A DNA stretch of 64,000 nucleotides. Source: an uncultured Chloroflexia bacterium. GTDB lineage: Bacteria; Chloroflexota; Limnocylindria; Limnocylindrales; CSP1-4. Every line of letters starts with the position of its first letter. The stretch's first letter is position 1. A program made the position numbers and the translations under genes. The notes below the pieces were generated by a model. It was not told where the DNA came from. It did not search any database and worked only from the letters and a program-made list of their open reading frames with translations. Where the stretch lies: contig CAVYIM010000004.1 in NCBI GenBank assembly GCA_963768655.1, forward strand, positions 192,001-256,000, written 5' to 3'. Positions 2,290 to 62,453 of the stretch are shown piece after piece.

Positions 2290-2332
2290 CCCCAGGGCTG
2301 TTGGCGGTCGCCCGAGGGCTTGCGTAGGCTCG

Positions 2333-37810: not shown

Positions 37811-37909
37811 CGGTCGACTCCAAACGCACCCTGGGCGCGGCGTTCGAGCGCGCCCGATCAATTCTGCACCGGCTCGTCGTGGATCGGCCGTCGATGTCCC
37901 GCGCCACAC

Positions 37910-37997
37910 GCCGGGCCGGCGCCACAGGCCGGGCCGGCGCCACAGGCCGGGCCGGCGCCACAGGCCGGGCCGGCGCCACAGGCCGGGCCGGCGCCAC
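37910..37997. repeat. Intergenic 18-bp tandem repeat (~5 copies)
   Basis: gccgggccggcgccacag repeated head to tail without spacers. Confidence 0.92.
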
Positions 37998-38131
37998 CGG
38001 GGCGGTCAGGGGAAGCGGCCAGGGGTAGCGAAGAGAGCCTGACGGCGGAGCGAACCGAAGGTAGGATCGAACCCGCACACGCGGCCCACCCGACCGCGCC
38101 AGAGACGCCCCAGCTTTTCGGGAGGCAGAAC

Positions 38132-45202: not shown

Positions 45203-45245
45203 TGGCGCGGGAGACGGGATTCGAACCCGCGACACTCTGCTTGGG
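45203..45245 (-). repeat. Distal att site: copy of the tRNA-Gly 3' half
   Basis: 41/43 identity to 62378-62420, ending in the anticodon loop. Confidence 0.9.
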
Positions 45246-45331
45246 GGGGTCCTGCGTTCGCATGCGTTGTGACGTGAGCGTAGAAGATGGCGTCAGCGTC
45301 TTTCGACTCGGCCAGCGTCGCGCCGATCGGC

Positions 45332-47683: not shown

Positions 47684-47695
47684 AGTCGGCGTTGC

Positions 47696-48124
47696 TCAGC
47701 TGACTGCTTTCTTCACGAGCGCGCCGATCCTTACCTCGTCGGCGGCGGTCAGGTCCTTCAAGGCGTAGGTGGTCGGCCACATGGCGCCCTCGTCGAGGTT
47801 CGCCTTGTCGCTGAAGCCCAACGTCGCGTACCTGGTCTTGAACTTCCGCGCGTCCTGGAAGAAGCAGACGACATTGCCGTCACTGCCATACGCCGGCATC
47901 CCGTACCAGAGTCTGGGCGAGAGGGCTGGGGCGCCGGCTTTGATGATCGCATGGAGCCGCTCGGCCATGGCGCGATCCGCGTCCGCCATCTCGGCGATCT
48001 TGGCGAGCACATCGGCTTCGCCGTCCGCCGCTTGGGAGGCCGCCTTGAGCTCCCTGGCGCGCTCCTTCATGGCGGCCCGTTCGTCGGCCGAGAATCCTTT
48101 GGAGGGCTTCCTGGCATCTACCAT
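47696..48124 (-). CDS. DUF1801/YdhG-like protein
   Basis: [26 protein letters not shown]. Confidence 0.85.
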
Positions 48125-48151
48125 CGGGAGTCTCCTGTCGCTTGCGGGGGG

Positions 48152-48586
48152 TCAGACCGGCGTCTGCTGGGCGACCTTCGCCGGCTGGAGGATCCGAATC
48201 GCGTTGCCGAAGGGGTCCCGAAGGCCCATGTCGGTGCCGTAGAAGTGGTCGGTCGGCTCCTGGGTGAAGTCGGTGACTCCGCGCGACCGGAGCGATTCGT
48301 ACATGGCGCGGACGTCGTCCACGATGAACACGAGGCCACTCATCGCGCCTTTGGTGATCAGCTCGCGGAGCTGCGCCGAGGTCGCCTCGTCATGGAGCGG
48401 CGGGCCGGGCTGCTCCAGCGAGACCTCGGTCCCGCCGTCCACTCCGGGCACGCGGACGGTGAGCCATCGGTAGGTGCCCTGCCGGACGTCGTTGCCCTTC
48501 TCCAACCCGAGCTTGTTGACGTAGAAGTCGAGAGCCTCGTCCTTGTCGAGGACGTAGATCGAGGCCACGTTCAACCGGGTGATCAT
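48152..48586 (-). CDS. VOC/glyoxalase family protein
   Basis: ALDFYVNKLG, RWLTV, RDPFGN. Confidence 0.9.
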   Translation of the reverse strand: MITRLNVASIYVLDKDEALDFYVNKLGLEKGNDVRQGTYRWLTVRVPGVDGGTEVSLEQPGPPLHDEATSAQLRELITKGAMSGLVFIVDDVRAMYESLRSRGVTDFTQEPTDHFYGTDMGLRDPFGNAIRILQPAKVAQQTPV

Positions 48587-48624
48587 CGGGACTGCTCCTT
48601 TGCTGGCATCGAACGGTACGGAGG

Positions 48625-49083
48625 TCAGGCTAGGGGAGTCGCGGCCGCTCGCGCTTCTCCAAAACTGCTGAATCGCATCGCCGCCCCGGCAGAGATCATC
48701 GGCCGAGTCCCCGTCATCTGGACGCAGTTCGGTGCGGGCATCGGCCCGTGCAGCACGCGATGGCCGGAGGGCGTCTCGCCGACGATCTCGCGGAACGTGC
48801 GGCTGAAGGTCCCCAGGCTGGTGAAGCCGACATCGAAACAGATGTCGGTGACGCTGCGGTCGGTCTCGCGCAGCAGGAACATCGAGCGCTCCACCCGCCG
48901 CCGCTGCAGGTAACGGTGCGGCGTCTCCCCGAAGACGGCGCGGAAGCTGTGGATGAAGTGCGCTTCGGAGAGGTGGGCCACCGCGGCCACGGCGCGGACG
49001 TCGAGGGGCTCGGCGTAGGCGCGGTCCATGGCGTCGCGGGCGCGCAGCAGGCGCCGGTTCAAATCCTCGACTTTCAAGCTCAC
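48625..49083 (-). CDS. Small AraC-family regulator
   Basis: SEAHF..FGETPHRYL, VGFTSLGTFSRTF. Confidence 0.9.
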   Translation of the reverse strand: MSLKVEDLNRRLLRARDAMDRAYAEPLDVRAVAAVAHLSEAHFIHSFRAVFGETPHRYLQRRRVERSMFLLRETDRSVTDICFDVGFTSLGTFSRTFREIVGETPSGHRVLHGPMPAPNCVQMTGTRPMISAGAAMRFSSFGEARAAATPLA

Positions 49084-49215
49084 GGTGCCACGATAGGCTA
49101 TCTGGGGCGCGCGCTCAGTTCCCCATCCCTCAGTAACCGCCCCTCGGAACTACAGCTGGGAAGCGCCGGGACGCGTGACAGCGGGGGTGACGGACGACAG
49201 GTCAGCGGTCTTGGG

Positions 49216-50820
49216 TTAGTGCCCGGAGCCCGCGCCTCGGCGACCCCGGCTCGGCCTCGAGCCAAGACTTCGCATCAGACACGCGGCGACGGTGAGGCCG
49301 GCGAGGAGCGCCAGCATCGGTCCCGGCTCGCCGCCGGAAGGGGTCGGCTCGGACGTGCTGCTAGCCGGCGGAGTAACGCCCGCAGTCGGAGACGGCCCCG
49401 CAGTCGGAGACGGCCCCGCGGAAGGTGACCGCCCCGCGGTAGGTGACGGCCCCGCGGTAGGAGACGGCCCCGCGGTAGGTGACGGCCCCGCAGTGGGAGT
49501 GGCTGACGAGGTCGGTGCCTTGGGCTCAACGGTGACGGTGGCCTGGCTGGCCGTACCGGAGCCACCCTCGGTGGAGCTGACGGGACCCGTGGAGTCATGC
49601 CAGGTGCCCGCTGTCGTACCGACGACACCGACAGAGAAGGTGCAGCTCGCGCCGGCCAGGAGCGTGGCGCCCGAGAGACTCATCGTCGTGGCGCCGGGGG
49701 CGGCCGTGATGGTGCCGCCGTCACAGGATCCCGTGAGACCGGTAGGCGTCGCCACGAGGAGGCCCGCCGGCAGAGTGTCCGTGAAGCCGATGCCCGACAG
49801 TATCATCACCCCGGGCCCCGGTACGTTCGGCTGTTTCACGTTGGCAGCGTCCTGGTTCTGGTTCGCGATGGTGAAGGTCAGCGTCGTCGACCCACCATGG
49901 GGGATGGTGGCCGCTCCAAAGGCTGCGCTGATGGTCGGTGGGGAAAAGCCGACGCTGAGGTTGGCCGAAGCCCCATTGCCGGCGCCGCCGTTCGACGAGC
50001 CAACCTGATCGATGGTTGCGCTGTAGTACCCGGTCATCGGGGCGGACACGGTAACGGAGAAGGTGCAACTCGCTCCGACCCCGAGCGTCGCGCCCGAGAG
50101 GCCGATGTCCGAACCGCCGGCTGGCGCCAGGATAATGCCGCCGCCGCAGCTGCCCGTGAGGCCGTTTGGACTCGCCACGTTGAGACCCGCCGACAGCACG
50201 GCGGTGAAGTTCACACCCGTGAGAGCGGCATCGTTGGCGGCCGGGTTGGTGACGGTGAAGCTCAGGGCGCTATTGCCCGGACCGGTCAGGGATCCAGGGG
50301 AGAAAGAAGCACTGATGGAAGGCGGGGCGACCACATCGATGCCCACGCTGCCGACAGAGTTGGCAGCGCCCTGATCTGAGCTGCTGGTCAGCTGATCTAC
50401 TTTTTCCCCGGCGGTCGTCCCGGTGACGTCGACCGTCACCATTGGCGGGACCGTGAATGCAAATCCCGACAAGCTGATCGTGCTGCTACCCGGGTCTGCG
50501 GTCGCGGTGCCGGCCGTGCCGCTATACATCGTCACCGTCAAGTTCGGCGAGTCGGCGACCACCAGACCGACGGGCAGCTGGTCAGTGAGGCTCACGCCAG
50601 TGAGGGGCACCCAGACATCCCAAAGCAGCACCAGCCTGCCGGTCCCGTGGAGGGGCATAGAGAACAAAGGTGACAGTGGCACAACGGGAGAGGCCGGGTC
50701 CGTAATGCAGTCGGCGACGGTGTAGGGCCTAGCGGCATATGCCCGGCTCGGGCAGAAGAGGCTGGCGGCACAGACCAGCGCAATCAACGGGCCGGCGAGT
50801 CTGCCGAATTGGCGAGCCAT
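49216..50820 (-). CDS. Surface protein with DUF11-like Ig repeats, Pro/Thr stalk and C-terminal membrane anchor
   Basis: Signal peptide; repeated FTD.LP.GL.VA..SCGGG..LSGATL..GASCTFSV; TM followed by a basic tail. Confidence 0.8.
   Translation of the reverse strand: MARQFGRLAGPLIALVCAASLFCPSRAYAARPYTVADCITDPASPVVPLSPLFSMPLHGTGRLVLLWDVWVPLTGVSLTDQLPVGLVVADSPNLTVTMYSGTAGTATADPGSSTISLSGFAFTVPPMVTVDVTGTTAGEKVDQLTSSSDQGAANSVGSVGIDVVAPPSISASFSPGSLTGPGNSALSFTVTNPAANDAALTGVNFTAVLSAGLNVASPNGLTGSCGGGIILAPAGGSDIGLSGATLGVGASCTFSVTVSAPMTGYYSATIDQVGSSNGGAGNGASANLSVGFSPPTISAAFGAATIPHGGSTTLTFTIANQNQDAANVKQPNVPGPGVMILSGIGFTDTLPAGLLVATPTGLTGSCDGGTITAAPGATTMSLSGATLLAGASCTFSVGVVGTTAGTWHDSTGPVSSTEGGSGTASQATVTVEPKAPTSSATPTAGPSPTAGPSPTAGPSPTAGRSPSAGPSPTAGPSPTAGVTPPASSTSEPTPSGGEPGPMLALLAGLTVAACLMRSLGSRPSRGRRGAGSGH
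49377..49495 (-). repeat. In-frame 18-bp repeat (AGPSPT, ~6 copies)
   Basis: gacggccccgc(a/g)gt-type units. Confidence 0.85.
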
Positions 50821-51060
50821 CGCGATCCTCCTCTGACGACCACGGGCCACCCCACCGGGCGATGCGATGTGGCCGTGACGGTGTCCCCCGCCGCAATCTT
50901 AGCGTGCCACACGTTCACGAACACCCGAAACAGCTCTGGGCCAGGCGAGAGCTCGTCGTGTCGGGTGTTCGCGTGCGGAAAAGCGGGCGGGTCGGATCCG
51001 GTAGAGGAAGATCGAACCAGTCGCGGCGCTCGGCCACGCTCCCTGTGCCAAGGGCGGCCG

Positions 51061-51507
51061 TCAACCCGCGATGATGACCGACGTGTCAACGCCGCGGGCG
51101 GCGAACTGGCCGGCTGCGGCCGTCAAGATGGCGTTCGCGATTCCGACAGCACGCTCGGCGTCGTCGCTCGTGACGGTATCGCCCTCGTCCGGGTCGCGGG
51201 CCAGGGTCTCTATGTCGGCGAGCCAGGCAAGGTCCGTGGTGCTGGCCGGGTTCGAGAAGTCTGACGAGGCTTGCGCCTGGATGGCCTCTAGATCGCGTGT
51301 CATCTCGAACGGCACGTTATCGAGCAGGATCACGGCCTTGATGGCCTTCTCCGCGGCCTGCTGGGCCATGTAGGCGGTGTTGCGGTTGGGGACTGCCGTC
51401 GAGCCGAGGAACGCCCGCGCCGTGTCGATGTCGCCCCTGGCGAATGCCAGCCAGCGGCTGGCCTCTTCTACGTTGGCCGCGGAGGGCTGCTCGTGCTTAG
51501 GCGACAT
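51061..51507 (-). CDS. HEPN-domain protein, apparently degenerate
   Basis: AQQAAEKAIKA; TRDL and ARDP where THDL and RYP are usual. Confidence 0.8.
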   Translation of the reverse strand: MSPKHEQPSAANVEEASRWLAFARGDIDTARAFLGSTAVPNRNTAYMAQQAAEKAIKAVILLDNVPFEMTRDLEAIQAQASSDFSNPASTTDLAWLADIETLARDPDEGDTVTSDDAERAVGIANAILTAAAGQFAARGVDTSVIIAG

Positions 51508-52030
51508 AGACCGGGACTCCCTCGGAGAGTGCACTGGCGATGATCGACCCGGGTCGCAGCGCGGCGGCCTCCTGCTCGGTGGTCACGAGGATGTCCTTGT
51601 CCACGATGAGGTCGGCGAGAACAGCGCGGATGGCTACCCGGCGCTCTCGTCGATCCGCGACGGACTGAAACACGACCAGGAGGTCAATGTCACTCAACGG
51701 TCCCGCCTGACCTCGCGCCTGGGAGCCGAACAGGATGATGCGCGACGGCGCGAAGCTCTCCGCGATGCGGCGAGTCATCTCCGGGAGGTAGCGGAGAGCG
51801 CGATCACTCAGTCCGCGTCCGGGCTCGGGTCGCCACTCACCACTTGTGAGCGATCGTCCGCACCCGACAAGCAGCGTGTTGAGCGTGCTCGCGCGCGGGT
51901 CAGTCTGCCCTCGCTCGATCCGGGCGATCGTGCTCTGCGGCACGCCGGTTCGGTCTGCCAGCTTACGCTGCGTGATCCCGGCGCAGCGGCGGTCGGTTCG
52001 CAGGAGAACGCTCGCCTTCATGTCAGCCAC
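51497..52030 (-). CDS. XRE-HTH fused to a minimal nucleotidyltransferase (MNT) antitoxin
   Basis: TQRKLADRTGVPQSTIARIERG; LFGSQARG...SDIDLLV. Confidence 0.85.
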   Translation of the reverse strand: MADMKASVLLRTDRRCAGITQRKLADRTGVPQSTIARIERGQTDPRASTLNTLLVGCGRSLTSGEWRPEPGRGLSDRALRYLPEMTRRIAESFAPSRIILFGSQARGQAGPLSDIDLLVVFQSVADRRERRVAIRAVLADLIVDKDILVTTEQEAAALRPGSIIASALSEGVPVYVA

Positions 52031-52035
52031 CTTCG

Positions 52036-52059
52036 CTTGATAGCGTATTCACTATCAAG
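52036..52059. promoter_or_regulatory. Inverted-repeat operator just upstream of HTH-MNT
   Basis: CTTGATAG-N8-CTATCAAG. Confidence 0.7.
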
Positions 52060-52225
52060 AGCCCTGCCGACGATGCCAAGCCCACGCTCGCCACCCGTGG
52101 GATCGCTTTCTTCAGAGGCGCTAATAGCCCTACCGACGGGCTACCGCGGAGGTCCGCTCCGGCCGATCGACTGGTTGACCAGGCGGATCTCGTCGAGACT
52201 GACGACGCCCCCCTCCAAGCGGCAG

Positions 52226-52453
52226 CTACATGTCCCCCTTTTCGATCGCGCGCACGCGAACCTCGTACTCAGCGGGTGAGATCTCACCAGCAGCCATCCG
52301 ACGCTTGAGTTCCGCGATGCCGGGATCCTCGGGGGGAGGGAGCGCCCGTCGCAGCGCAAAGACGATCACGCCCACGACGAGCAGAGTTATCACCAGTATT
52401 GAGAGTAGCGTCCCGGCGACTATCGCCAGCGCCAGATCGGAACCGGAGTCCAT
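52226..52453 (-). CDS. Small membrane protein with SHOCT domain
   Basis: TM helix then LKRRMAAGEISPAEYE. Confidence 0.75.
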   Translation of the reverse strand: MDSGSDLALAIVAGTLLSILVITLLVVGVIVFALRRALPPPEDPGIAELKRRMAAGEISPAEYEVRVRAIEKGDM

Positions 52454-52624
52454 TGCACGCTCCGCTGGTCCAGGTGGCGGGCACGCCGTCAGGGTGCGCC
52501 CCCGGCCATTGTGTTCAGTCCACGCACGGAGTCAACTCACAGCCCCTAACCGAAGCCAGGCCGGCCAGGGGAGTGGGTCCGGCCCCGCCGCAGGCGGCCA
52601 TCTCGGCTCGGCGGGTAGCCCTCC

Positions 52625-52775
52625 GATGTTCGACGGCGATCGGGAGACGTTTCGCCCGCAGGTAGGCTTCGAGGGTCGTGACCGCGTCGAGGTACGTCAT
52701 GACGGTCTTGGGACTCTTGTTTTCGGCGGGCCGCGCCCGCCGAAAGCTCTCGGCGAGGACGCCGAGCGTCGGTCC
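52625..52775 (-). pseudogene. Truncated tyrosine integrase N-terminus (paralog of 61347-62267)
   Basis: [13 protein letters not shown]...AENKSPKTVMTYLDAV..EAYLR.KRLP matches the intact integrase. Confidence 0.88.
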
Positions 52776-52834
52776 GGCCGGAGAATCGTCGAGCCCCTCG
52801 GCTAGAGGGGCTCTTCGCGAGGAACTTGGCGACT

Positions 52835-52863
52835 TGGAGCGGGAGACGGGACTCGAACCCGCG
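52835..52863 (-). repeat. Internal att site: tRNA-Gly 3'-end copy
   Basis: 28/29 identity to 62378-62406; the adjacent hairpin gagcccctc..gaggggctc is also duplicated. Confidence 0.88.
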
Positions 52864-53007
52864 GTCGCCATCCAAGAGCCGGTGCAGTGGGAGCCAAGGT
52901 CAGCCATGTATCGTCGACGGCCAGGGTGCCATTGCGCTTCATCGCCGAAACGGAGCCTATCGGCGAAGGACCGTAACTGTTACAGGGTCCATCGCGGTGG
53001 TAGAACG

Positions 53008-53036
53008 TTGACCTTCTAGAAGGTTAGGCTTATAGT
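53008..53036 (+). promoter_or_regulatory. TA promoter/operator
   Basis: Perfect palindrome ACCTTCTAGAAGGT (53011-53024) between TTGACC and TAGGCT/TATAGT. Confidence 0.7.
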
Positions 53037-53382
53037 GTGGGAGATCGAAGGCACGGACCAGTTCGCTGACTGGTTCGGCCAACTGAGCAGAAGCGACAAA
53101 GTAAGAGTCGAGGCCGCGATCGAGCGGCTCGAAGAAGAGGGTCCCGGCCTGGGTCGCCCGTGGGTGGACAGTCTCGTCGGGACGAAGGTCAAAGAACTCA
53201 GACCACGCGGCGGATATCTCCGGATCTTGTTCCGCTTCGACCCTCGGAAGACCGGCATCCTCCTGATGGCAGGAAACAAGGAAGGCCTCTGGGACCAGTG
53301 GTACAAGACCGCAATCCCTGAAGCCGAGAGGCTCTACGAAGACTACGTCGCCGAGCTGCGGAAAGAAGGACACCTGAAATGA
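53035..53382 (+). CDS. RelE/HigB-like (Gp49-type) toxin
   Basis: LEEEGPGLGRP.VD, KELRP, RILF.FDP.K.GILL.AGNK. Confidence 0.9.
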   Translation: MWEIEGTDQFADWFGQLSRSDKVRVEAAIERLEEEGPGLGRPWVDSLVGTKVKELRPRGGYLRILFRFDPRKTGILLMAGNKEGLWDQWYKTAIPEAERLYEDYVAELRKEGHLK

Positions 53383-53720
53383 CGGCGAGCAGGTTTCGGA
53401 CGATGCGGGAGGAGATGCTCGCCGACCCTTCCTTCCGGGCGGAGGTCGCTCGGGAGAAGGCCATCATGGCTGAGATCGACCTTTCCGCCGCGCGTCAGGC
53501 CAGCGGCATGACCCAGGAGGCCGTGGCGGCCGAGATGGGCAAATCGCAGGAGAACGTTTCCCGGATCGAGCGCCAGCGCGACGTGCGCGTCTCCACCCTG
53601 GCGCAGTTCATCCAGGCTCAGGGCGGTGAGCTGGAGATCAACGCCGTCTTCTCAGGCCGGCGGGTGAGCCTGATGAGGGCTGCAGGCGCGGCATCCAAGC
53701 CAAGCCGCCAGCGCGCCTAG
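53379..53720 (+). CDS. XRE-HTH antitoxin
   Basis: TQEAVAAEMGKSQENVSRIER, GGELEINAVF. Confidence 0.9.
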   Translation: MTASRFRTMREEMLADPSFRAEVAREKAIMAEIDLSAARQASGMTQEAVAAEMGKSQENVSRIERQRDVRVSTLAQFIQAQGGELEINAVFSGRRVSLMRAAGAASKPSRQRA

Positions 53721-53776
53721 TTCAGTCGATAGCTCAGCTGGGGGACGTCGCCGCCGGTCGCCTGACCGTAGGCGCC

Positions 53777-54664
53777 TCATGACCGCCATCCTCCGTCTCC
53801 GGGGTTCCAGGTGGCGGACGCGACCTCGCCGGAGAGGACCGGGTCCAGCATTCGAGCCGCAACAGCGTGCCCCGCGCCAAGATCCGGGTCGAGTCCGATA
53901 TCGCGGGCCATTCGGGCATAGGGCACGCGCCAGTCGGCCGGCGGGTCCGGCAGCGCCGCCGGCAGAGGTTGGCCGGCGCGACGCGCGAATGTGCGGTCCA
54001 TGGCGATGCGAAGAAGGGCGGCGTCAGGCGTTCCTTCGGTCGCGATCAGGGCCAGGTCGACGAGATCCTTGACGCGCGTGCTCGGCGTTCGATCGCCGTA
54101 TCCGCGTGTGTAGGCGTGGACCTTCTCGGCGATCTGGAACTCGAGCGGCACCGCCGCGACCTCGACGGGTACCAGGTCAGCGAAGGCGAGCAGGTCGGGT
54201 CCGCGCAGGCGCGCGAGCTCGACATCGGTGGGCGGGTCGAAACCCACGTCGAGGACGAACTCGTCGAAGGTGCGGCCGGCCAGCTCGGCGACGACGTGAT
54301 AGCGAACGGCGGCACCATCACGAAGCCGGTCCAGAGCGCTCGTACGCTCGATGGCGAAGCCGAAGAAGTCGCCGAGATCGACCGCCTGAGCTGCCAGCAG
54401 GGCCGTCGTCGCCGAGGCTTCGTCGCCGGCAGTCGCCAGATCGATGTCTCTAGTCGTCCGGGCGTGGCTGCCGAACCGGTAATCCAGCGCGAGCGCGCCC
54501 TTGAGCAGCCAGCGATCCGGCGCCGTTGCCACCAGTCGGGCAAGCAGTCGATCGAACGCGACCTCCTTGCGCAGGCGGACAGTCGAACGGCCGGTTTCCT
54601 GGCTGAGCGCAGGCAGCTGCCTCTCCAGTGCCTGGCGGAAGTCCGGCGCGGATCTGTACTTCAT
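53777..54664 (-). CDS. AbiEii-family nucleotidyltransferase toxin
   Basis: LLKGALAL, RTTRDIDL, IAEKVHA, RVKDLVDL. Confidence 0.9.
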   Translation of the reverse strand: MKYRSAPDFRQALERQLPALSQETGRSTVRLRKEVAFDRLLARLVATAPDRWLLKGALALDYRFGSHARTTRDIDLATAGDEASATTALLAAQAVDLGDFFGFAIERTSALDRLRDGAAVRYHVVAELAGRTFDEFVLDVGFDPPTDVELARLRGPDLLAFADLVPVEVAAVPLEFQIAEKVHAYTRGYGDRTPSTRVKDLVDLALIATEGTPDAALLRIAMDRTFARRAGQPLPAALPDPPADWRVPYARMARDIGLDPDLGAGHAVAARMLDPVLSGEVASATWNPGDGGWRS

Positions 54665-55269
54665 GTCGCGCGGTCCGTCCGTGCCCGGTCGATGAGGCGC
54701 TGGACTCGTCGACCCCGCGTTTGGGCAGCGTCCCGCAGTCGGGAGGACGTTGTCAGGCTTCGATCGAGCGCGCTATGCACTGCCGCGACGACCTGGTCCG
54801 GTGCGACCCCGACTTCGGCGACGTCCACGATCGTGCGCTCCGGTCCGGTGACCCGAACGCCCTTGCGCGAGACGACGTCCGCTTCGGCGAGAGGCCGGGT
54901 CGTCGTGTGAATGACGACGCCGGGCTGGTTCACCAGCCTTCGGCGGATCCGCGGCACCGTGAGATGCACGGCGTCTGCGATGACGTCGGAGAGCCCCAGG
55001 AGCGCGAGTGCCGATTCGTGCGAGACAACGGCGTCGGGTGCTTGGCGTAGCCAGGCGGCGACGATCTCCTCGTGGGTCTCGTGCGGGTAGTCACGCAGAC
55101 GGTACAGGCCCCTGGCCACGCGCAGGAAGCGCCCGCTCTTGGCATGGTGTGTGAGCAGCGCCGAACTGAAGCCGCACGCCTGGGCCTGGGACGTCGTGAA
55201 GTAGCCAGCCTGCGCGCTAGCTATGGCGAAGAGCGCGCCGTGGTCAGTGGTAGGCAGTGTGTCGTTCAC
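54661..55269 (-). CDS. AbiEi-family antitoxin
   Basis: QAGYFT..QA, RVARGLYR, VSHESAL, VTGPERTIVD. Confidence 0.9.
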   Translation of the reverse strand: MNDTLPTTDHGALFAIASAQAGYFTTSQAQACGFSSALLTHHAKSGRFLRVARGLYRLRDYPHETHEEIVAAWLRQAPDAVVSHESALALLGLSDVIADAVHLTVPRIRRRLVNQPGVVIHTTTRPLAEADVVSRKGVRVTGPERTIVDVAEVGVAPDQVVAAVHSALDRSLTTSSRLRDAAQTRGRRVQRLIDRARTDRAT

Positions 55270-55351
55270 ATCCTAGATGATACTTAGTAAGTCAACGACA
55301 TGATTGAGGGTGCTGGTTGCGCGATCTTTGATCCAGGGCGGCGGCCTCTTG

Positions 55352-56392
55352 CTACCGCGCCCGAGTGTGGTCCAGTCTGGATTCGATCAACGGCATCATG
55401 TCTCGTGACGCCTTGATGATTTCGTCCGGGACACCGAGTGCCTTGACGAGATCGTTTGCCATCTTGATCGGCCGGCGTTCGAGTGGTTCCGTCCGCCCTT
55501 CTTCAAGTTGGCGTTTCGCGCCCAGAAGCTGATGAATCTCGTCCAGGTGGAAGAACACCTTCAGGGAGTTTGCCTCGGTCCCGTACCGGATGCTGCGACC
55601 GTGCAGGATCAAATGCCGGTTCAGCCGAGGTGACAAGTTGGACGTCATACCGAAGTCGATCTTGCTATAGAGCCCCAAGAGCGACTCGATCGCTACCTCG
55701 AGCTCGATCTCCTCGAGACCGTCGAAGATGTCGCGGAGTGGCTCGAGCCCGGTGACCACCTTCATCCGACCGCCGAGTCCGAAGCCGTCCGCAATGACGC
55801 CTTCGATGCACGGCATCAAAGTGGGGATGCTCACGCGGTACCGACCGGCCAAGTGATCGGCCAGGGCATCTCGAATGATCAAGCGGCGCGTGTGCAGGGC
55901 CGGCTCGTCCGACCAAGAATTGACCATTCGCCGCAGGGCGCGGCCTCCATAGGCGCGACATGAGCGACAGATCTCGTCAGCCAGTGCACGACGGCCGAGA
56001 GTGCGAGCCAGCAGGTCATACCGCTGAAGCTGCTCGTCATTCCAGCTAGATAACGCCCACCACCCCTTGGCTCTGAGAACCTCATCGGCACGCGTGTATT
56101 GAGCGTTGAGGTGTTCGGCGTAGGCGACTGCGGCGACCTGCGAAATAGCGAGCAATCCTCGACCTATCGCCGGTGCCGCGGCTTTGACGGCCGCGTCCAG
56201 CTTCCGGATCGACTCGGATGTCCGACGCTGCGCCGATGCGACGAGCACCGAAGCTCGATCCGAGAAGCGCTGCCAGGCGCGAACGGCAGCCTGACCCGTC
56301 GATCGAAGAGTGGCGGCTTCGCGCGGGGACCGACTCTGGACAAGGTCGCTAGCCCAGTCTCGAGCGAAGTCCTCGTCGCCTTGATGCTCCAT
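55352..56392 (-). CDS. Hypothetical protein with HEPN-like RxxxxH motif
   Basis: SIPTLMPCIEG...LNRHLILHG..YGTEANSLK. Confidence 0.65.
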   Translation of the reverse strand: MEHQGDEDFARDWASDLVQSRSPREAATLRSTGQAAVRAWQRFSDRASVLVASAQRRTSESIRKLDAAVKAAAPAIGRGLLAISQVAAVAYAEHLNAQYTRADEVLRAKGWWALSSWNDEQLQRYDLLARTLGRRALADEICRSCRAYGGRALRRMVNSWSDEPALHTRRLIIRDALADHLAGRYRVSIPTLMPCIEGVIADGFGLGGRMKVVTGLEPLRDIFDGLEEIELEVAIESLLGLYSKIDFGMTSNLSPRLNRHLILHGRSIRYGTEANSLKVFFHLDEIHQLLGAKRQLEEGRTEPLERRPIKMANDLVKALGVPDEIIKASRDMMPLIESRLDHTRAR

Positions 56393-56440
56393 GACGCCCT
56401 CTCATTCTGACCCCGGGATCCCAGGGTGAAATCGATCCGG

Positions 56441-57160
56441 TTACGGCGAAGCGAGACGGCTGAGCGCGATGATGCCGTCCGTGGCGCCCGCGATTCCGCG
56501 CCACGCCCCGTTCGCCGGATCAAGCAGCTGCTCATGAGTGCGCAGGTAGCCGCGTTCCTTCGCGGTCAGCTCGGAGCGCATGCCCTCGATGTTCGAAACG
56601 AGCGCCAGAAGCCGGGCAAGGTCCCGCAGGTGCTTGGCATTCGAACTGCTCGACGCAGCCCGAGCCTTGATCACAAGGGCGCCCGCGAGGGTCGGCACCG
56701 GAAGCTTGAACAAATCGCCGAGGACGTCGATCGTCACCTCACGCCGGCGATGCAGCGCCTGCGTACCTCCGACGGTTTCCAGGGTGGTGCCTGGGGGCGA
56801 AGTGGTCAGGTCTGCCCGAGGCCCGAGATTCTCCGGTGCGAGCACGTCCACGACGTCGTCGCCGCGGACGAAGCGGTAGCTCAGCCCGTCGTTGGTCAGC
56901 TTTGCGGTGAACCCGACCTCCTCCAGCCGCCGAGCGGCCTCTTGGGTCGCGCCGGTGAGCGCCCGGACGTCCATGAGCGCGTCCACATCCCGAGTCGCGC
57001 GCCCCGTTCGGCCTCCGTGCTCGCGTTCCAGAAGCGTGACCATCTGGCCGCCGATTAGGACCCAGGGCAGCCCGGCGAGGAGATCGGCGATCTCGTGCGT
57101 GACTCGCCAGAGCCGCTCCTCTGCGTCGTCGCCGGGGACAATGACGATTGGGCGCTCCAT
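56441..57160 (-). CDS. Nucleotidyltransferase-fold (AbiEii-like) putative toxin
   Basis: WVLIGGQMV, RATRDVD, VIKARA, KHLRDL. Confidence 0.72.
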   Translation of the reverse strand: MERPIVIVPGDDAEERLWRVTHEIADLLAGLPWVLIGGQMVTLLEREHGGRTGRATRDVDALMDVRALTGATQEAARRLEEVGFTAKLTNDGLSYRFVRGDDVVDVLAPENLGPRADLTTSPPGTTLETVGGTQALHRRREVTIDVLGDLFKLPVPTLAGALVIKARAASSSSNAKHLRDLARLLALVSNIEGMRSELTAKERGYLRTHEQLLDPANGAWRGIAGATDGIIALSRLASP

Positions 57161-57840
57161 CAGCGCTGATACCGTTTCAACAGCTGCCTCGCAGCTTCCT
57201 GTGAACGCGGGTCGACGTCGTCGGCCAGGTCGATGGCCACGACCGAGGCGGGCGCAAATGGGCGAGCGGGCCAGTCGGGCGTGAGCGCTGGCGTCGTGCG
57301 CAGCGTGAGGTTGGGCTGCTGGCCCTCGAGCAGCTTGTACTTGTCGACCAGGGCGTCGAGGCGCTCATTCGTGAGGTACGCGTCGAACTCGTCGGCCGGC
57401 ATCAGATCCAGGCCAACGTCTGGCGCGGCCGATACTCCCGTGCGCATGAGTCCGGGCTCGCGTCGGATCCGCGCGAGGTCCGATGGGTGGGAGCGGAACT
57501 GCCGAGGTTGGGCGCGCGTCACCAGCCGCGGGCGCAGCGAGGCAAGGTCGTGGTGGACCATGAAATTCCGGAGCTTGGCGCGGGACACCGGGTCGAGCCA
57601 GGAAGCATCGAGGCCGTCGAGCAGGAATAGCAGACCCCACGCCCGCTGCGGCGAGAAGCGGCGACCATCCAGGGTTCCGAGCTTTGCTCGGCGATCTACG
57701 CTCGCTGCGTCTATCAGCAGAACGCGCCCGAGGTGCCGCGCCACGAGTTCACCGGATGCGATCAGCGTGCGCACGCGACCGGCCGTCACTCCGAGTCGAG
57801 CGGCAGCCTCAGGGACCGAAAGGGCCCTTTCCTCAACCAT
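57160..57840 (-). CDS. Excisionase-type HTH plus AbiEi-like C-terminal domain (putative antitoxin)
   Basis: LSVPEAAARLGVT..RVRTLIASGEL; VVAIDLAD..DPRSQEAA. Confidence 0.7.
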   Translation of the reverse strand: MVEERALSVPEAAARLGVTAGRVRTLIASGELVARHLGRVLLIDAASVDRRAKLGTLDGRRFSPQRAWGLLFLLDGLDASWLDPVSRAKLRNFMVHHDLASLRPRLVTRAQPRQFRSHPSDLARIRREPGLMRTGVSAAPDVGLDLMPADEFDAYLTNERLDALVDKYKLLEGQQPNLTLRTTPALTPDWPARPFAPASVVAIDLADDVDPRSQEAARQLLKRYQR

Positions 57841-57849
57841 GGTGATAAC

Positions 57850-57877
57850 AGCATAGTTGAGGAAATGGCTACGTCAA
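57850..57877 (-). promoter_or_regulatory. Sigma70-type promoter giving a near-leaderless transcript
   Basis: Minus strand TTGACG-N16-TATGCT, 9 nt before ATG 57840. Confidence 0.65.
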
Positions 57878-58082
57878 GGGCAACGCGCGACAAGGTCCTT
57901 CTGGGCGAGCGGGTGTGGCAACGTTCTGGCTCGGCTAGAGTCTCCTAGTCGGAACCTGAGCGCGGGGCCTGCGTTCCCGCCGACCCCGCTGCCACCTCGG
58001 CACCGCCTCGATGTGGCGGCCTCAGGAGTTGCAGGGTCATGTTGGCCCTTTGGCATGGCGGGAGCAATAGGGGGATTCGCGG

Positions 58083-58967
58083 ATGACGACGATTGCATGC
58101 TGGTTCGGCGCGGACACGCACGGTCCTGCATCTCTCTACATCGCCTCTGACAGCCGCATCAGCTGGAGTGCGCCCGGGGCAGTCGATGATCCAGCACGGC
58201 CGCGACTGATGTGGGATCAGGGGCGAAAGGTATTCGCCTGTCATGAGCAGCCTCACATCTTCGGCTACTACGGCAACGTGGTGTTCCCGGCGCTCGCTAT
58301 TCCTTCGGTTTGCGAGCTCATCGACCGCAGGCTCCTGCCGTCCACGACCAATCCAACGCGCTGGCACCTTCAGGTGAAGAAGACATTCGATGGATTGTTC
58401 TCCGACTATCCGCGCGATGCGATGACGACCTGCGGGATCATCCACGGACTCAGAATTGGAGCGGGAACCTCTTGCACATTCAGCCTGGCGGTGTTGACGT
58501 GGAAACCCGGACAGGAGCGATTTGAGATCAAGCGGGTCTCGATTTCCGGAACGAAGTCGGGGATCTTGGTTCTCGAGGGCACCGGGAGCCGTGCTGTTCA
58601 GGACATGCGTGTGGAGTGGTCGAAGAGCGCGCATCGCGACACATCGCGGGCCGAGTTCAGTGCGTTCTGTGACGGGCTACGCTCAGCGCGGGACCCGAAC
58701 ACAGGAGGAGCCCCTCAGCTCGCGGGTCTATATCGGATTGGCCCCGGACGGCCGTTTGGGGTTGTGTGGAGAGGACAGGCGACCGTGGCTGGCCGCCGAA
58801 GGATATCCTTGGAAGATCGGGCGGCCGGACGGCAGGTGATTGGTTGGCACAACGAGCTGTTCGAGATCGCGGACCGGGACACGAGGAGGCGGCGCCCTGG
58901 CGCTCAGCGGCACGGACGGCCAGCGCTTGAGCCCTCAGGACCGGCGGGGGACGATGGGCCGGCATAG
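58083..58967 (+). CDS. Hypothetical protein, proteasome-beta/HslV-like Ntn-hydrolase fold suspected
   Basis: MTTIA..IASDSR..GRKVF..IFGYYG..GTGS..D.NTGG pattern. Confidence 0.55.
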   Translation: MTTIACWFGADTHGPASLYIASDSRISWSAPGAVDDPARPRLMWDQGRKVFACHEQPHIFGYYGNVVFPALAIPSVCELIDRRLLPSTTNPTRWHLQVKKTFDGLFSDYPRDAMTTCGIIHGLRIGAGTSCTFSLAVLTWKPGQERFEIKRVSISGTKSGILVLEGTGSRAVQDMRVEWSKSAHRDTSRAEFSAFCDGLRSARDPNTGGAPQLAGLYRIGPGRPFGVVWRGQATVAGRRRISLEDRAAGRQVIGWHNELFEIADRDTRRRRPGAQRHGRPALEPSGPAGDDGPA

Positions 58968-59015
58968 CCTGCACCCCGCGGCAAAGCTTGGGGGGTCCGT
59001 CTATCGGGGTCAGGG

Positions 59016-61280
59016 CTACTTCGTTTTCACAGCGTCGAACGCGGCTCGCTCGAACGAGGAGAGCTCGAACGAGACGGGCTTGAGGTAGGCTGCCCACACG
59101 ATTCGCGGCAAACCGCCTTTGCGCCTGGACTGGCAGACCACGACAATCGTCGGATCTGACGGCTCCCGAGGCATGTCGCGAATAGCATCCCTCGGGTTGA
59201 CATCTGGACCTATGCCGAGGATGACCAGGCGGCCGAATTCAAGCGGGATCCGTTTGTTTCGAGTTGCTGCCTCCCGAGCCACCTCGGCGGCGTTTGTGGA
59301 TACCGCCGCAAGCTCGGGGATCGAAAGGTCGATACAGGCTCCGGCGGCTTCACGCCAGCCCTCGGGACGGTCCGACGACAGCGCTTGAACGAAGCTCCCG
59401 AGCGGCTCGGGGAGGAACTTCCGTGGCTTCTTCATCTTGGGGCCGCGCCCCGCGAGCCCGTCATAGTACGCGTCGAAGTCGGTGCTGGAATTCGCGATCA
59501 TCACCTTCCCGCCGTCGTGCAAAATGCCGAACCGCTCGCACAGCAAGTAGGACGCCCAGAGGTCGATCTCGTCGCTGACCTCCACGTCGCTGCCGAGGGG
59601 CAGGCGGTTTCGCCAAACGAGGTAATGGAGAAAGATCGCCGCGTTGTCGCACGTCTCGGCGATCACACGAAGATCGTTGATGTATACGGACCAAGGCAGC
59701 TCCTGCTCCGGGAGCAAGCCGAGCGATCGGAGGTGCCCAAGCTGGGAGGCGTGCCCTGCGAGCTCGTGCAGGGTGGGGTTCACGATGATTACAGTCGAGA
59801 CCGATCCCGATGGGATCCTAAGAATCTCGGCGCCCTTCTCATCGGTGAACACGGAGTCGCCGTCGCGCAGAAGGTAGGCTCGGGCACGAGCGCCCTGCTC
59901 CCAGGCAGCCTCGACGGCGGCCTCTATGTCGCTCTTGAGGCGACGAACATCGCCAAGTTGCCCTTGGACGCTAAGGGGCGACGCTTTGCCCTCGACGACG
60001 AGAGCGACGTCATCGAAGAGGACTAGCCCATCCAGTTCGGCGCCCTCATAGAACAGGTTGGTCTTCGCCATCGCCCCGGGCAGGAGCTCAGCAAGGTAAC
60101 CAACTGCTAGCCGGTCGAGTGTCTTGGCTCGCTGCTGTGAGAACGCCGTCTTGCCTGCTAGGAGTTCTGACTCAAAGAGGGCTGGCACGTCTCGCTCGAG
60201 TGCGCCCGGGATTGTGAGGAGGTAGTCTCCGTTGAGTTCGAGGAATGGCCTGGTCCGGAGGGGGCTCTCGTCGAACAGGCCCGAGTATCGGTCGCCGGCA
60301 AGGCTGCCAACTGACACCGATAGCCCGTCGAGTACGGCTTGAACACGATCGATGGACGGGGATTTTCGAGTGGCCGCGATCTCCGCTGCCGTGACCGTCA
60401 TGGCACCGCGAATGCCTGCCTCCATGACGCCGACGACGGCCATCATCCCCTTCGCCACCGCCTCCGGATCTCCCCTGGGCGCCTGACCCAAGACCACATT
60501 GGCTTTGGCTTCACCGGCTTGGCCTAGCTTGTTCATCTTCATGTTCATCAGTCCAGCGACGGCGTCGCCGACCTGCAACACGTCTTCAATCGTGAAACCG
60601 TAGGTGGCCAAGAGCCATTCGTTGTGCGGTCCGTAGAGCGCCACGGCCAGGTCACGGCCATGGGCGGCGAAGCTCGAGCCCCGGACCGTCATCCACCTCA
60701 TGGCCCCACCGAACTTGAGACGTGCTATCTCCGGATCTTCTCCTGGATCTTCTGTAAGGTTGAGCAAGAGAATGACTTCGACAATATGGTCAAGCTCATC
60801 GAAGACGGCCTGCATGTGTTTGGCTGTGGGGGGCTCCAGCGTTTTGGCTAGCGGCTGGGTTGCCAAGAGGCCGCTCACCAGTTCGATCTTGGCTTCGCTT
60901 CCTTCGTGCGTTGGTTCGAAGTAGCCTCCCCACGGAGTGAAGAGGTTTAGGGACTGCACGGTGGCGGTTATGTGGAGCGGGTCCCCTGTCCTCAGAAGAC
61001 TTCGCAGCTTCGCGATAGCCTCCGCGAGCTCAGTTCGAAACCCCTTGTGGGCTTCGGGAGCAAGCTTCATGAGTTCGGCATGCTCTTCCGGCGTTAATGC
61101 GCTCTTGGTGACCAAGTAGCCGCCCTGGAGTTGGTCCTCGATGACGCGTGACAGAAGCTGCGAGAACCGGTCGCCGCGCTTTGAGAATCCGGACGCGAGC
61201 TGATCATGTTTGGCCTCGAGTGCCGCCAGTGGACTCGGGTTGTGCGGCCTCGTGATCCTGCTTCTTCCCCTCTTCGACAT
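59016..61280 (-). CDS. Large hypothetical protein with PD-(D/E)xK (NERD-like) nuclease motif
   Basis: ELDGLVLFDDVALVVEGKA..Q...A; HYL..R..DEIDLWASYL. Confidence 0.65.
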   Translation of the reverse strand: MSKRGRSRITRPHNPSPLAALEAKHDQLASGFSKRGDRFSQLLSRVIEDQLQGGYLVTKSALTPEEHAELMKLAPEAHKGFRTELAEAIAKLRSLLRTGDPLHITATVQSLNLFTPWGGYFEPTHEGSEAKIELVSGLLATQPLAKTLEPPTAKHMQAVFDELDHIVEVILLLNLTEDPGEDPEIARLKFGGAMRWMTVRGSSFAAHGRDLAVALYGPHNEWLLATYGFTIEDVLQVGDAVAGLMNMKMNKLGQAGEAKANVVLGQAPRGDPEAVAKGMMAVVGVMEAGIRGAMTVTAAEIAATRKSPSIDRVQAVLDGLSVSVGSLAGDRYSGLFDESPLRTRPFLELNGDYLLTIPGALERDVPALFESELLAGKTAFSQQRAKTLDRLAVGYLAELLPGAMAKTNLFYEGAELDGLVLFDDVALVVEGKASPLSVQGQLGDVRRLKSDIEAAVEAAWEQGARARAYLLRDGDSVFTDEKGAEILRIPSGSVSTVIIVNPTLHELAGHASQLGHLRSLGLLPEQELPWSVYINDLRVIAETCDNAAIFLHYLVWRNRLPLGSDVEVSDEIDLWASYLLCERFGILHDGGKVMIANSSTDFDAYYDGLAGRGPKMKKPRKFLPEPLGSFVQALSSDRPEGWREAAGACIDLSIPELAAVSTNAAEVAREAATRNKRIPLEFGRLVILGIGPDVNPRDAIRDMPREPSDPTIVVVCQSRRKGGLPRIVWAAYLKPVSFELSSFERAAFDAVKTK

Positions 61281-61346
61281 ACCGTGAGTCTAGGGTTCTG
61301 TGATCGCGCGGTACAGGGCTCACCAGGCCTATCGGCCGATAGGCGA

Positions 61347-62267
61347 TCAGTAGCGATCGCCCGGTCCCAACCTCTTGTGGGCTTCGCGGGCCCGTTCGTC
61401 GGCGGCTGAAGCGCCATAGCGGGTGAGCATCGTCCGGCTGCGCCACCCGGCCAAGCGCATGAGATCGCCTTCGTTGCCGCCGGCGGCCAGCCACTGGTGG
61501 GCGTAGGTGTGGCGGAAACGGTGCGGGTGGACGTCGGCGATGCCGGCCGCGGCGCCACGGCGCCGGACAACGTCCGCCACGCCGTTCGGCGTCATCGGCC
61601 CAGCGAGCCCGAGCCAGAACGCGGGCCGGTCCTTGTCGCGGTGGCTCGCCCGCGCCCGGAGGTATCGGTCCAGCGCCTGCGCCGTTCGCCGCCCGAACGG
61701 ACAGGCTCGCTGTCGCCGGCCCTTGCCCAAGACCAGCGCGATGTTCTGTTCGAGATCGACATCGGCGACCCGCAGCCCGGCCAGTTCGCCGAGGCGCATG
61801 CCGGTGTCCAGGAACATCCGGACGACGGCCATGTCACGGCGATCCTCGAACGCACGCCCCTCGCACGCTGCGAGGAGGCGTCGGATCTCGTCGTCGGTGT
61901 ACACGTTGGGCGGCGTTTCGGGCACTTGCGGGGGACGCATCGTCGCCATCGGGCTCGCCTCGAGCTCGCCCTCGGCGACCGCCCAGCGAAAGAACGTCTG
62001 GAGGGCGCGGTAGCGGACCGAGGCGGTCGCGGGCTTGAATTGCGCCAGTTGGTCGGCGATGAAGTCCAGGCAGAATGTCTTAGGGATGCGGTCGACAGAG
62101 GTCGGGAGACGTTTCGTCCGCAGATACGCTTCGAACCCTGTAACCGCGTCGAGGTACGTCGTTACGGTCTTCGCGCTCTTGTTTTCGGCCAGCAGCGACC
62201 GCCGGAAGCTGTCGGCGAGGACGCCGAGCGTCGGTCCAGGGGCGGCGCCAGGGGTCTCTGGGGCCAT
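61347..62267 (-). CDS. Tyrosine recombinase/integrase
   Basis: [26 protein letters not shown]; GGAGG RBS; adjacent to the tRNA. Confidence 0.95.
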
Positions 62268-62333
62268 TTGGAGCCCTCCGAAATCCGTCCAGTTAGAGTG
62301 TCGGAGAGCATAGTGCCAGGCCAGAGAATTGTC

Positions 62334-62356
62334 GAGCCCCTCAGTTAGAGGGGCTC
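62334..62356 (-). terminator. Hairpin downstream of tRNA-Gly
   Basis: gagcccctc-agtta-gaggggctc. Confidence 0.6.
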
Positions 62357-62377
62357 TTCACGAGGGATTTGGCGATT

Positions 62378-62453
62378 TGGAGCGGGAGACGGGATTCGAA
62401 CCCGCGACATTCTGCTTGGGAAGCAGACACTCTGCCAGCTGAGTTACTCCCGC
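62378..62453 (-). tRNA. tRNA-Gly(CCC)
   Basis: GCGGGAG acceptor stem, TCTGC-TTCCCAA-GCAGA anticodon arm, GGTTCGAATCC, CCA end; 76 nt. Confidence 0.97.

Follow-up and report, generated by a model that had tools for sequence, protein, structure and literature searches.

The question raised by this locus is whether the cargo of a small mobile element, integrated at a tRNA gene of an uncultured Chloroflexia bacterium, amounts to one anti-phage system, to several independent modules or to no defence at all, and what its three unannotated genes encode. The window, by which the whole analysed stretch of 64,000 nucleotides (nt) is meant, comprises positions 192,001 to 256,000 of contig CAVYIM010000004.1 (source assembly GCA_963768655.1, 3.37 Mb, 88.6% complete) and is high in G+C (about 0.58–0.74 per 500 nt). 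Two elements stand in tandem in it at tRNA-Gly(CCC), and 53008–61280 spans the entire cargo of the younger one. The best-supported reading of this segment is a mosaic of independent conflict modules and not one system, made up of two regular toxin–antitoxin (TA) or abortive-infection (Abi) pairs, a third pair that is AbiE-like, and three predicted enzymes that stand alone, named P0001, P0003 and P0004 here. The three are probably conflict genes, serving either defence or addiction, and it is plausible to treat the segment as a candidate defence island; any single mechanism proposed for the three was placed far below that reading and is much less likely. The protein-coding genes of the cargo and their promoter-like sites are as follows, with protein lengths in amino acids (aa) and helix-turn-helix abbreviated as HTH.

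53008–53036: promoter-like site at the Gp49/HigB-like toxin gene
53035–53382, forward strand: Gp49/HigB-like (RelE/ParE-superfamily) toxin, 115 aa (PF05973, E = 7.3e-17, 61.7 bits, cut-off 23.9)
53379–53720, forward strand: XRE-type HTH_3 antitoxin or regulator, 113 aa (PF01381, E = 6.1e-8), overlapping the toxin gene by 4 nt
53777–54664, reverse strand: AbiEii nucleotidyltransferase toxin, 295 aa (PADLOC AbiEii, E = 3.4e-82; PF08843, E = 1.1e-24)
54661–55269, reverse strand: AbiEi antitoxin or regulator, 202 aa (PADLOC AbiEi, E = 2.6e-66; AbiEi_4 and AbiEi_1 domains)
55352–56392, reverse strand: P0001, 346 aa, unannotated family, by its motif a probable HEPN-type RNase
56441–57160, reverse strand: second, divergent AbiEii-like nucleotidyltransferase (NTase), 239 aa (PF08843, 22.8 bits, cut-off 22.5)
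57160–57840, reverse strand: HTH_17/excisionase-type DNA-binding protein, 226 aa (PF12728, E = 2.2e-7; TIGR01764, 29.1 bits, cut-off 28.8)
57877–57850: promoter-like site at the HTH_17 gene
58083–58967, forward strand: P0004, 294 aa, predicted proteasome beta-like N-terminal-nucleophile hydrolase in which Thr follows Met immediately
59016–61280, reverse strand: P0003, 754 aa, predicted helical N-terminal domain, NERD-type PD-(D/E)xK core and alpha/beta C-terminal domain

An initial annotation, made from the letters and open reading frames (ORFs) of the window, had described the cargo as TA-like pairs plus three genes of unassigned family with less GC-biased codon use. Gene content and order were borne out by searches in Pfam, PADLOC and NCBIfam. 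The choice among the many overlapping ORFs was guided by the G+C content at third codon positions (GC3), which is 0.72, 0.71 and 0.74 in the three unannotated genes (range 0.71–0.74) against 0.78–0.87 in those for AbiEii, AbiEi, the second NTase, the HTH_17 protein, the XRE protein and the integrase; the Gp49 gene, likewise low at 0.73, is an exception among the TA-type genes. Two ORFs on the reverse strand that overlap the 294 aa gene (57945–58634 and 58657–59097) are Arg/Pro-rich, look spurious and were set aside.

Predicted enzymes and toxin–antitoxin pairs of the cargo

P0003 matched no family at E ≤ 0.01 in Pfam or PADLOC and none credibly in NCBIfam, where the lone row (MtaC, 15.9 bits) lay far under the 450-bit cut-off. 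Its family is large: a word-indexed search returned 83 clusters, all unnamed or 'hypothetical', and a family profile run with HMMER against 1.84 billion representatives recovered 4284 clusters at E ≤ 1e-3 and 1636 at E ≤ 1e-30, with most members 740–820 aa long. Across 75 aligned members D417, Q462, R557, E571 and P619 were invariant and E415, E430 and K432 were at least 90% conserved; at the level of sequence, D417...E430-x-K432 is a D...ExK nuclease signature. The label 'NERD-like' given in the initial annotation held in part. P0003 itself had no match to Pfam NERD (PF08378) at E ≤ 0.01, but of 60 distant relatives six gave weak NERD matches at the corresponding place (17.9–23.4 bits, cut-off 22.1, one above it), seven carried a C-terminal SEC-C zinc motif and the remainder had no relevant family. 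Plasmid-borne relatives were found on 20 records at 21–30% identity, with the NCBI labels 'SecA', 'SEC-C metal-binding' and 'NERD domain-containing'.

The AlphaFold model of P0003 (predicted local distance difference test score, pLDDT, 93.8; predicted template modelling score, pTM, 0.93) consists of a helical part (17–320), an alpha/beta core (strands 404–429 and helix 445–471) and an alpha/beta C-terminal part. In structural comparison (VIA) it was matched to N.BspD6I (Z 10.0, 192 residues aligned), to the small subunit of R.BspD6I (Z 8.7), to HindIII (Z 8.0) and to Upx (Z 8.9, 403 residues, model 87–648 to chain 35–735); Upx was also its only Foldseek match at E ≤ 1e-3 (E = 2.9e-5). In the model, a restriction-endonuclease-like alpha/beta core thus appears to carry the D...(D/E)xK motif, and the prediction of a NERD-type PD-(D/E)xK nuclease is supported. 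Helical-hairpin matches with Z of about 8 to model residues 73–180 were treated as noise. Sequence searches of the PDB with all three proteins and their family profiles returned nothing significant, and an LmuA row (E = 0.25) and a gp14 row (E = 0.061) obtained with the P0003 profile were discarded as chance. No P0003 relatives were found in viral contigs, and PHROGs held no credible match for P0003 or P0004.

For P0004, too, Pfam, PADLOC and NCBIfam gave no family at E ≤ 0.01, and the Pfam Proteasome family (PF00227) was among those without a match. The family comprises 93 clusters, typically of 260–275 aa, with members in Micromonospora, Pseudomonas and Gaiellaceae among others. In 37 family sequences, nearly all of which start with 'MT', T2 is at least 90% conserved, and A21, D23, S24, R25, K49, G64, G166, G168, R189, G208, G209, Q212 and G237 are invariant. 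The model (pLDDT 92.1, pTM 0.90) has the four-layer alpha-beta-beta-alpha proteasome fold and gave at least 500 Foldseek matches at E ≤ 1e-3; the top matches listed were all to proteasome or Anbu subunits (best E = 1.5e-7, to 20S beta subunits). Comparison (VIA) with the Mycobacterium tuberculosis proteasome beta subunit gave Z 17.4 over 207 residues at a root mean square deviation of 3.6, with residue 2 falling on chain residue 1, and comparison with Anbu gave Z 16.3 (VIA). T2, D23, K49, G64 and G166xG168 come in the order of the proteasome residues Thr1, Asp17, Lys33, Gly47 and Gly-Ser-Gly, whose roles are described in PMC8665760; the pairing of D23, K49 and G64 with Asp17, Lys33 and Gly47 follows order and spacing and not a residue-level superposition. 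The fold confirms the earlier suggestion of an 'Ntn-like' protein, and P0004 is predicted to be a propeptide-free, proteasome beta-like hydrolase.

In a run of two copies, which carries no information on rings, P0004 was predicted to self-associate as a symmetric pair via residues 42–48, 66–84 and 101–113 with a score of 0.81; the best of three controls scored 0.02, the runs agreed in at least 61% of contacts and partner pLDDT was at least 80. Of the calibration proteins, 20 of the 30 solved as one-chain pairs and one of the 23 solved as single chains scored as high. The P0004 score may partly reflect likeness, because complexes of the proteasome family are solved. In the ESM Atlas the window's own proteins are absent and stored homologues fall only in unnamed clusters; PF00227 is assigned there to 14% of the members of one cluster related to P0004, and nothing useful was obtained for the P0001 family.

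Searches of Pfam, PADLOC and NCBIfam with P0001 also gave nothing at E ≤ 0.01, and its family is small (24 homologue clusters). In 17 family sequences 36 columns are invariant, among them R169, H180, R184, R186, S188 and E197-G198 as well as the run L257-N-R-H-L-I-L-H-G-R266, which contains RxxxxH (R259-H-L-I-L-H264) and so the Rx4-6H motif of HEPN proteins. The designation 'HEPN-like', proposed already in the initial annotation, follows from this motif, and on that basis P0001 is probably HEPN-like. The sole match in PHROGs was a weak one, of unknown function, to the motif region, and one relative was found in viral contigs.

The remaining cargo consists of recognizable pairs. The HigB/Gp49–XRE type II TA arrangement is present, with a Gp49/RelE-superfamily toxin followed by an HTH antitoxin; against the NCBIfam RelE/ParE model the toxin reached 22.6 bits, below the cut-off of 62.85. 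AbiE is a type IV TA system that acts by abortive infection. The AbiEi and AbiEii genes adjoin with a 4 nt overlap, both PADLOC models identify the pair as a regular AbiE member, and the AbiEii protein carries the motif G56...D73-I-D75. This is paralleled in the second NTase by G36-G37...D58-V-D60. The gene of the second NTase overlaps the HTH_17 gene by 1 nt, and the C-terminal part of the HTH_17 protein matches no family. No AbiEii or AbiEi match was obtained in PADLOC for this second pair (56441–57840), the upstream gene of which encodes an HTH_17 protein and not AbiEi.

Genomic neighbourhoods and competing explanations

The clearest defence-island signature of the three families is that of P0001. 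A metagenome scan yielded 38 loci of this family (loci are denoted by L numbers). Neighbours were searched in PADLOC with 94 of 106 neighbour ORFs and two ORFs of the L025 slot described below; the 12 left out were two L026 duplicates and ten ORFs under 150 aa. PADLOC-listed neighbours at E ≤ 1e-8 were found in 11 of 27 loci, a count made without a control set, as follows (restriction–modification is abbreviated as RM hereafter).

L025: AbiEi
L026: NACHT protein, PDC-M54A
L027: HNH-type ORF
L032: Upx and PDC-S39
L045: type I methylase/specificity
L049: AbiEi and type IIG enzyme
L053: SIR2 and type IIG enzyme
L054: PDC-S24
L057: restriction-nuclease model and PD-T4-6 kinase
L058: type I S and R, and HEC-05
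L062: type II M and R

In L032 (277–4885) the P0001 relative lies directly beside a 1240 aa protein matching the PADLOC Upx model (E = 1.1e-24), which is followed by a PDC-S39/DUF4209 protein.

Three of the 38 loci belong to sister elements of the one in the window. In L025, L026 and L029 the encoded relatives are 94–97% identical to P0001 and the order HTH_17, NTase, P0001 is kept; in relatives at 65–67% identity (L027 and L028) it is not. By blastn, L025/L029 and L026 share two stretches only with the window, namely tRNA and integrase (84–90% nt identity) and the HTH_17/NTase/346 aa block (window 54659 or 55333 to 57878, 87–88%), which in L025 also takes in AbiEi. In L025 the slot at 57879–61348, occupied here by the 294 aa and 754 aa genes, contains two ORFs without annotation, and in L026 it contains the gene of a NACHT protein of 1499 aa (PADLOC PDC-M54A, E = 2.8e-21). 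Since the slot content differs between sister elements, the 294 aa and 754 aa genes are exchangeable cargo beside the integrase. A Replic_Relax gene carried by the sister elements is missing from the window's element. As a separate observation, a Phd/YefM-domain ORF lies on the opposite strand in L025 (8126–9383) and L026 (8091–8819), and in L025 no AbiEii follows AbiEi; because AbiEi is there followed by this ORF and not by AbiEii, the sister elements seem to have had their AbiE pair split or replaced.

For P0003, one genome per species was scanned, which gave 24 loci in Chloroflexota, Solirubrobacterales, Verrucomicrobiota, Acidobacteriota, KSB1 and three archaeal lineages. All neighbours were clustered, and no conserved partner gene was found in the 24 loci. 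A connection of the 294 aa gene with the convergent 754 aa gene was considered and rejected, no relative of the former occurring in the 24 loci of the latter. The three nearest ORFs on each side were searched in Pfam (126 ORFs from 23 loci, without L005, which duplicates L002), and a mobile-element, TA or defence-type domain was present within three ORFs at 13 of the 23 loci. These domains were DarT with Macro, AbiEii, AbiEi, TrwC, coupling protein, serine recombinase, rve, Fic, IS110 and NERD, together with a Mutator transposase accompanied by a Schlafen-type protein, HEPN with MNT, and HepT with a methylase and a UvrD-nuclease. Specific matches near P0003 relatives in PADLOC were to DarT, AbiEii, AbiEi, SoFic, full-length Avs2 and a pAgo-associated model. 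The defence-gene neighbourhood of this family is suggestive. In one locus, L019 (4455–12109), the relative has as neighbours a canonical NERD protein of 275 aa (E = 2.7e-14) and Avs2 at full length (PADLOC E = 0), with a Dsr1-like gene at a greater distance.

The neighbourhood of the P0004 family is thin as evidence for defence. PADLOC-listed neighbours occurred in two of the five other loci examined, and no conserved partner was found in the five, the flanking ORFs being unlike one another. Among the neighbours were integrases, VapBC, an ImmA/IrrE–HTH pair and a multiubiquitin and ThiF pair, as well as a HEPN/Toprim-associated protein and SMEK, DUF2326, RES and DUF3800 proteins. Family members were present on six plasmid records and in two viral-contig loci; none was found in the phage-record collection. 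All three families are rare in related genomes: in sets of 400 other genomes sampled from the phylum, matches were obtained in three for P0003, in none for P0004 and in one for P0001, and none of the families was found in the 23 same-family genomes sampled, six of them of the same genus.

Several results weigh against a mosaic of conflict modules. The PADLOC release of 2023, which recognized AbiEi and AbiEii, contains no model matching the three unannotated proteins. A search of 27 P0001 family members (26 relatives and P0001 itself) against Pfam, HEPN models included, gave no match at E ≤ 0.1. At 10 of the 23 P0003 loci the neighbours were housekeeping or unannotated genes only, and in a near-versus-far comparison of PADLOC matches at E ≤ 1e-8, 10 of the 86 ORFs in the two nearest positions matched against five of the 58 at a distance of over 6.5 kb, which is no clear separation; among the near matches, four to ATPase, helicase or MotB models were generic. 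The match to Upx extends over residues 35–735, the N-terminal and middle domains and not the canonical C-terminal nuclease, and its TM-scores were low (0.21 and 0.15). Of the only five other loci examined for P0004, three lack a PADLOC-listed neighbour, and phage proteomes hold 27 proteasome-fold proteins that match the P0004 model at E ≤ 1e-3 (BFVD). Since phages also encode proteins of this fold, a function for the element or for a phage is as likely for P0004. The proposal of the initial annotation that the three genes are candidates for new defence systems finds support in their context, in the exchangeable slot and in the P0001 loci, and not in the near-versus-far comparison for P0003.

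A first alternative is that the genes serve the element, by addiction or stabilization, by competition with other mobile elements or in its own life cycle, and confer no anti-phage protection. This was considered somewhat unlikely. It draws on the block of HTH_17, NTase and P0001, which is kept with the integrase in the sister elements and behaves as backbone, on the HTH_17 protein, which reaches an excisionase-domain model, on P0003 relatives that have TrwC relaxases and a type IV coupling protein as neighbours (L003 and L008) or occur on the 20 plasmid records, and on the proteasome-fold proteins encoded by phages, as also described in PMC8665760. It fits less well with P0001 relatives that occur at 65–67% identity without the NTase and HTH_17 genes, with distant ones inside chromosomal RM loci, and with the slot of P0004 and P0003, which is exchangeable and contains a NACHT protein in one sister element; moreover, addiction and phage defence can coexist. 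The same block may also be taken as one three-gene system in which the NTase controls the RNase as MNT does HEPN toxins. The three genes share strand and order with a 1 nt overlap and a 48 nt gap, the triad is kept in L025, L026 and L029, and HEPN with a nucleotidyltransferase is a known pairing, a canonical example of which lies in the older element (51061–52030). That the three form a single system was nevertheless judged unlikely: the upstream ORF in L027 is unrelated to the NTase (BLASTP E = 5.4) and matches HNH-type models, a transporter is found upstream in L028, and the triad loci count as one lineage because the P0001 proteins in them are 94–97% identical. It is very unlikely that the three unannotated genes are incidental and possibly decaying passengers whose low GC3 reflects recent foreign origin. 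Their lower GC3 and their rarity in related genomes would agree with this, but the three frames are intact, families of 24 to 4284 clusters show conservation of the predicted catalytic residues, and two of the three proteins fold with pLDDT above 92.

In the preferred reading as independent conflict modules, P0003 would be a stand-alone, Mg-dependent PD-(D/E)xK nuclease, held inactive by its helical N-terminal and its C-terminal domains until a cue from phage or foreign DNA arrives, as for Upx. P0001 would act as a HEPN-type RNase that halts translation in infected cells and thereby causes abortive infection. P0004 would be a threonine N-terminal-nucleophile hydrolase, either a protease or a peptide-bond enzyme, whose target would be a protein of the phage or the host and whose active form would be a two-fold dimer or a higher oligomer. 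The TA-type pairs would stabilize the element and may also abort infection. A bolder version appears quite unlikely. In it, P0004 represents a new class of immune or conflict effector, a stand-alone and propeptide-free threonine hydrolase of proteasome fold that is spread by defence and mobile islands in many phyla and, as a two-fold dimer and not a degradation chamber, cuts or ligates a specific phage or host protein; the P0003 family, with at least 4284 clusters in bacteria and archaea, is a widespread and unnamed single-protein nuclease defence with a distant relationship to Upx.

As a kind of locus, the segment is nothing out of the ordinary for the field. Islands that are integrated at tRNA genes and have exchangeable slots for cargo have proved to be a source of new anti-phage systems, and in this one there are three compact candidates, each a single gene with predicted catalytic residues that can be named beforehand. 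Its real interest lies in the size of the unannotated P0003 family and in a proteasome-fold hydrolase as island cargo. A positive phage test of P0003, whose family has no Pfam or PADLOC model, would annotate thousands of genes in bacteria and archaea at a stroke; a proteasome-fold protein in conflict islands, if true, would open a new use of the fold; and the P0001 family, if true, would be another RM-associated HEPN-type gene. Among the top-ranked literature matches, which do not extend to bioRxiv supplements, no link of proteasome homologues to phage defence was found. If none of the three protects, the island is an ordinary mosaic of addiction modules.

Tandem elements at tRNA-Gly(CCC)

The boundaries of the younger element are set by the following features.

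62378–62453, reverse strand: tRNA-Gly(CCC), the integration target and sole tRNA called in the window (ARAGORN)
61347–62267, reverse strand: tyrosine integrase of the younger element, 306 aa (PF00589, E = 1e-28)
52835–52863, reverse strand: distal attachment repeat for the younger element, in which the 3' 29 nt of tRNA-Gly recur

Two direct repeats connect the ends. In the first (52776–52863 and 62319–62406, 90% identical) the spacer between integrase and tRNA and the tRNA end are copied, and in the second (52630–52775 and 62092–62237, 84%) the 5' end of the integrase gene is copied. To the left of the distal repeat a remnant of the integrase end of an older element is preserved (52630–52834, the repeat-matched part being 52630–52775), and another copy of the tRNA end (43 nt, 95%) lies at 45203–45245. 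From the copies of the tRNA end and the integrase remnant it follows that two elements stand in tandem at tRNA-Gly(CCC). The younger one (about 52864–62377, about 9.5 kb) is of the tyrosine-integrase type, intact and second in the array; the older one (about 45246–52834) is reduced to an integrase stub. At 41962–41982, a stretch of 21 nt is similar to the T-arm part of the tRNA-end repeats (81% to 45208–45228 and 62383–62403); no tRNA was called there by ARAGORN, and it may be a further tRNA or attachment-site remnant.

The older element carries, at 51061–52030 on the reverse strand, a canonical HEPN–MNT pair (HEPN, PF05168, 51061–51534; HTH_3 and NTP_transf_2, 51497–52030), and a fourth TA-type pair is therefore present at tRNA-Gly. 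An ORF of 1208 aa on the forward strand (45287–48913) is probably spurious, because its G+C content at first codon positions is 0.90 and it matches no family; on the opposite strand of this stretch are encoded a 783 aa protein with two ABC-type P-loop domains (45332–47683), a DUF1801 protein and an AraC regulator. At 49216–50850 on the reverse strand lies the gene of a DUF7933 protein (E = 2e-55), with seven copies of an 18 nt tandem repeat at 49361–49522, and a second array of 18 nt repeats was found at 37880–38023.

Comparison with known systems

The second pair of the cargo resembles AbiE in its layout, a DNA-binding protein followed by an overlapping NTase; it differs from AbiE in that an HTH_17/excisionase-type domain replaces AbiEi and in that the NTase lies only at the Pfam cut-off. 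Anticodon nucleases of the PrrC/RloC type are embedded in RM loci, and the HEPN superfamily includes abortive-infection RNases. By analogy, P0001 may be likened to these enzymes through its invariant RxxxxH, its occurrence as a single gene and the position of relatives inside type I, II and IIG RM loci, whereas it has neither an ATPase domain nor a match to a HEPN family model.

P0004 shares with proteasome beta subunits, HslV, Anbu and BPH the fold, an N-terminal Thr without propeptide and the conserved Asp, Lys and Gly-x-Gly in order. Unlike the proteasome it has extra C-terminal strands (212–264) and no ATPase partner nearby, and its predicted self-contact is a two-fold dimer via helices 66–84 and 101–113 and not a ring contact. 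According to Fuchs, Alva and Lupas (2021; PMC8665760), there are 22 new subfamilies of proteasome homologues, some of them in phages, and P0004 may belong to one of these.

P0003 is like the type IIS nucleases (N.BspD6I and FokI) and NERD proteins in the fold of its predicted catalytic core, for which the match to N.BspD6I was given above, and in D...ExK; it differs from the former in lacking both a DNA-recognition domain of the type IIS kind and a methyltransferase partner. ZwsA (Zowangsin) is, according to a 2026 preprint (bioRxiv 10.64898/2026.04.06.716636), an 82 kDa stand-alone NERD-domain RNA endonuclease directed against RNA phages. It resembles P0003 as a single protein of about 82 kDa encoded in genomic islands with a NERD-type core, and the spacing from Asp to ExK is equal (D567/E580/K582 in ZwsA, D417/E430/K432 in P0003). 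ZwsA differs in the position of its core, about 150 residues further down the chain, and in the VHS, DUF647 and S4 domains on its flanks.

Upx, a validated single-protein PD-(D/E)XK anti-phage nuclease according to PMC13099982 (1272 aa, cryo-EM entry 9wuf), has two nuclease sites, the canonical one of which is C-terminal (D1161/E1176/K1178), whereas P0003 has a single canonical core in the middle of its 754 aa. The PADLOC Upx model did not match P0003, which is accordingly not classed as an Upx member, and because the structural match is limited to the N-terminal and middle domains the likeness is read as one of working like Upx. What P0003 would have in common with Upx is the plan of a large, stand-alone protein in which a PD-(D/E)xK core is combined with large regulatory helical domains.

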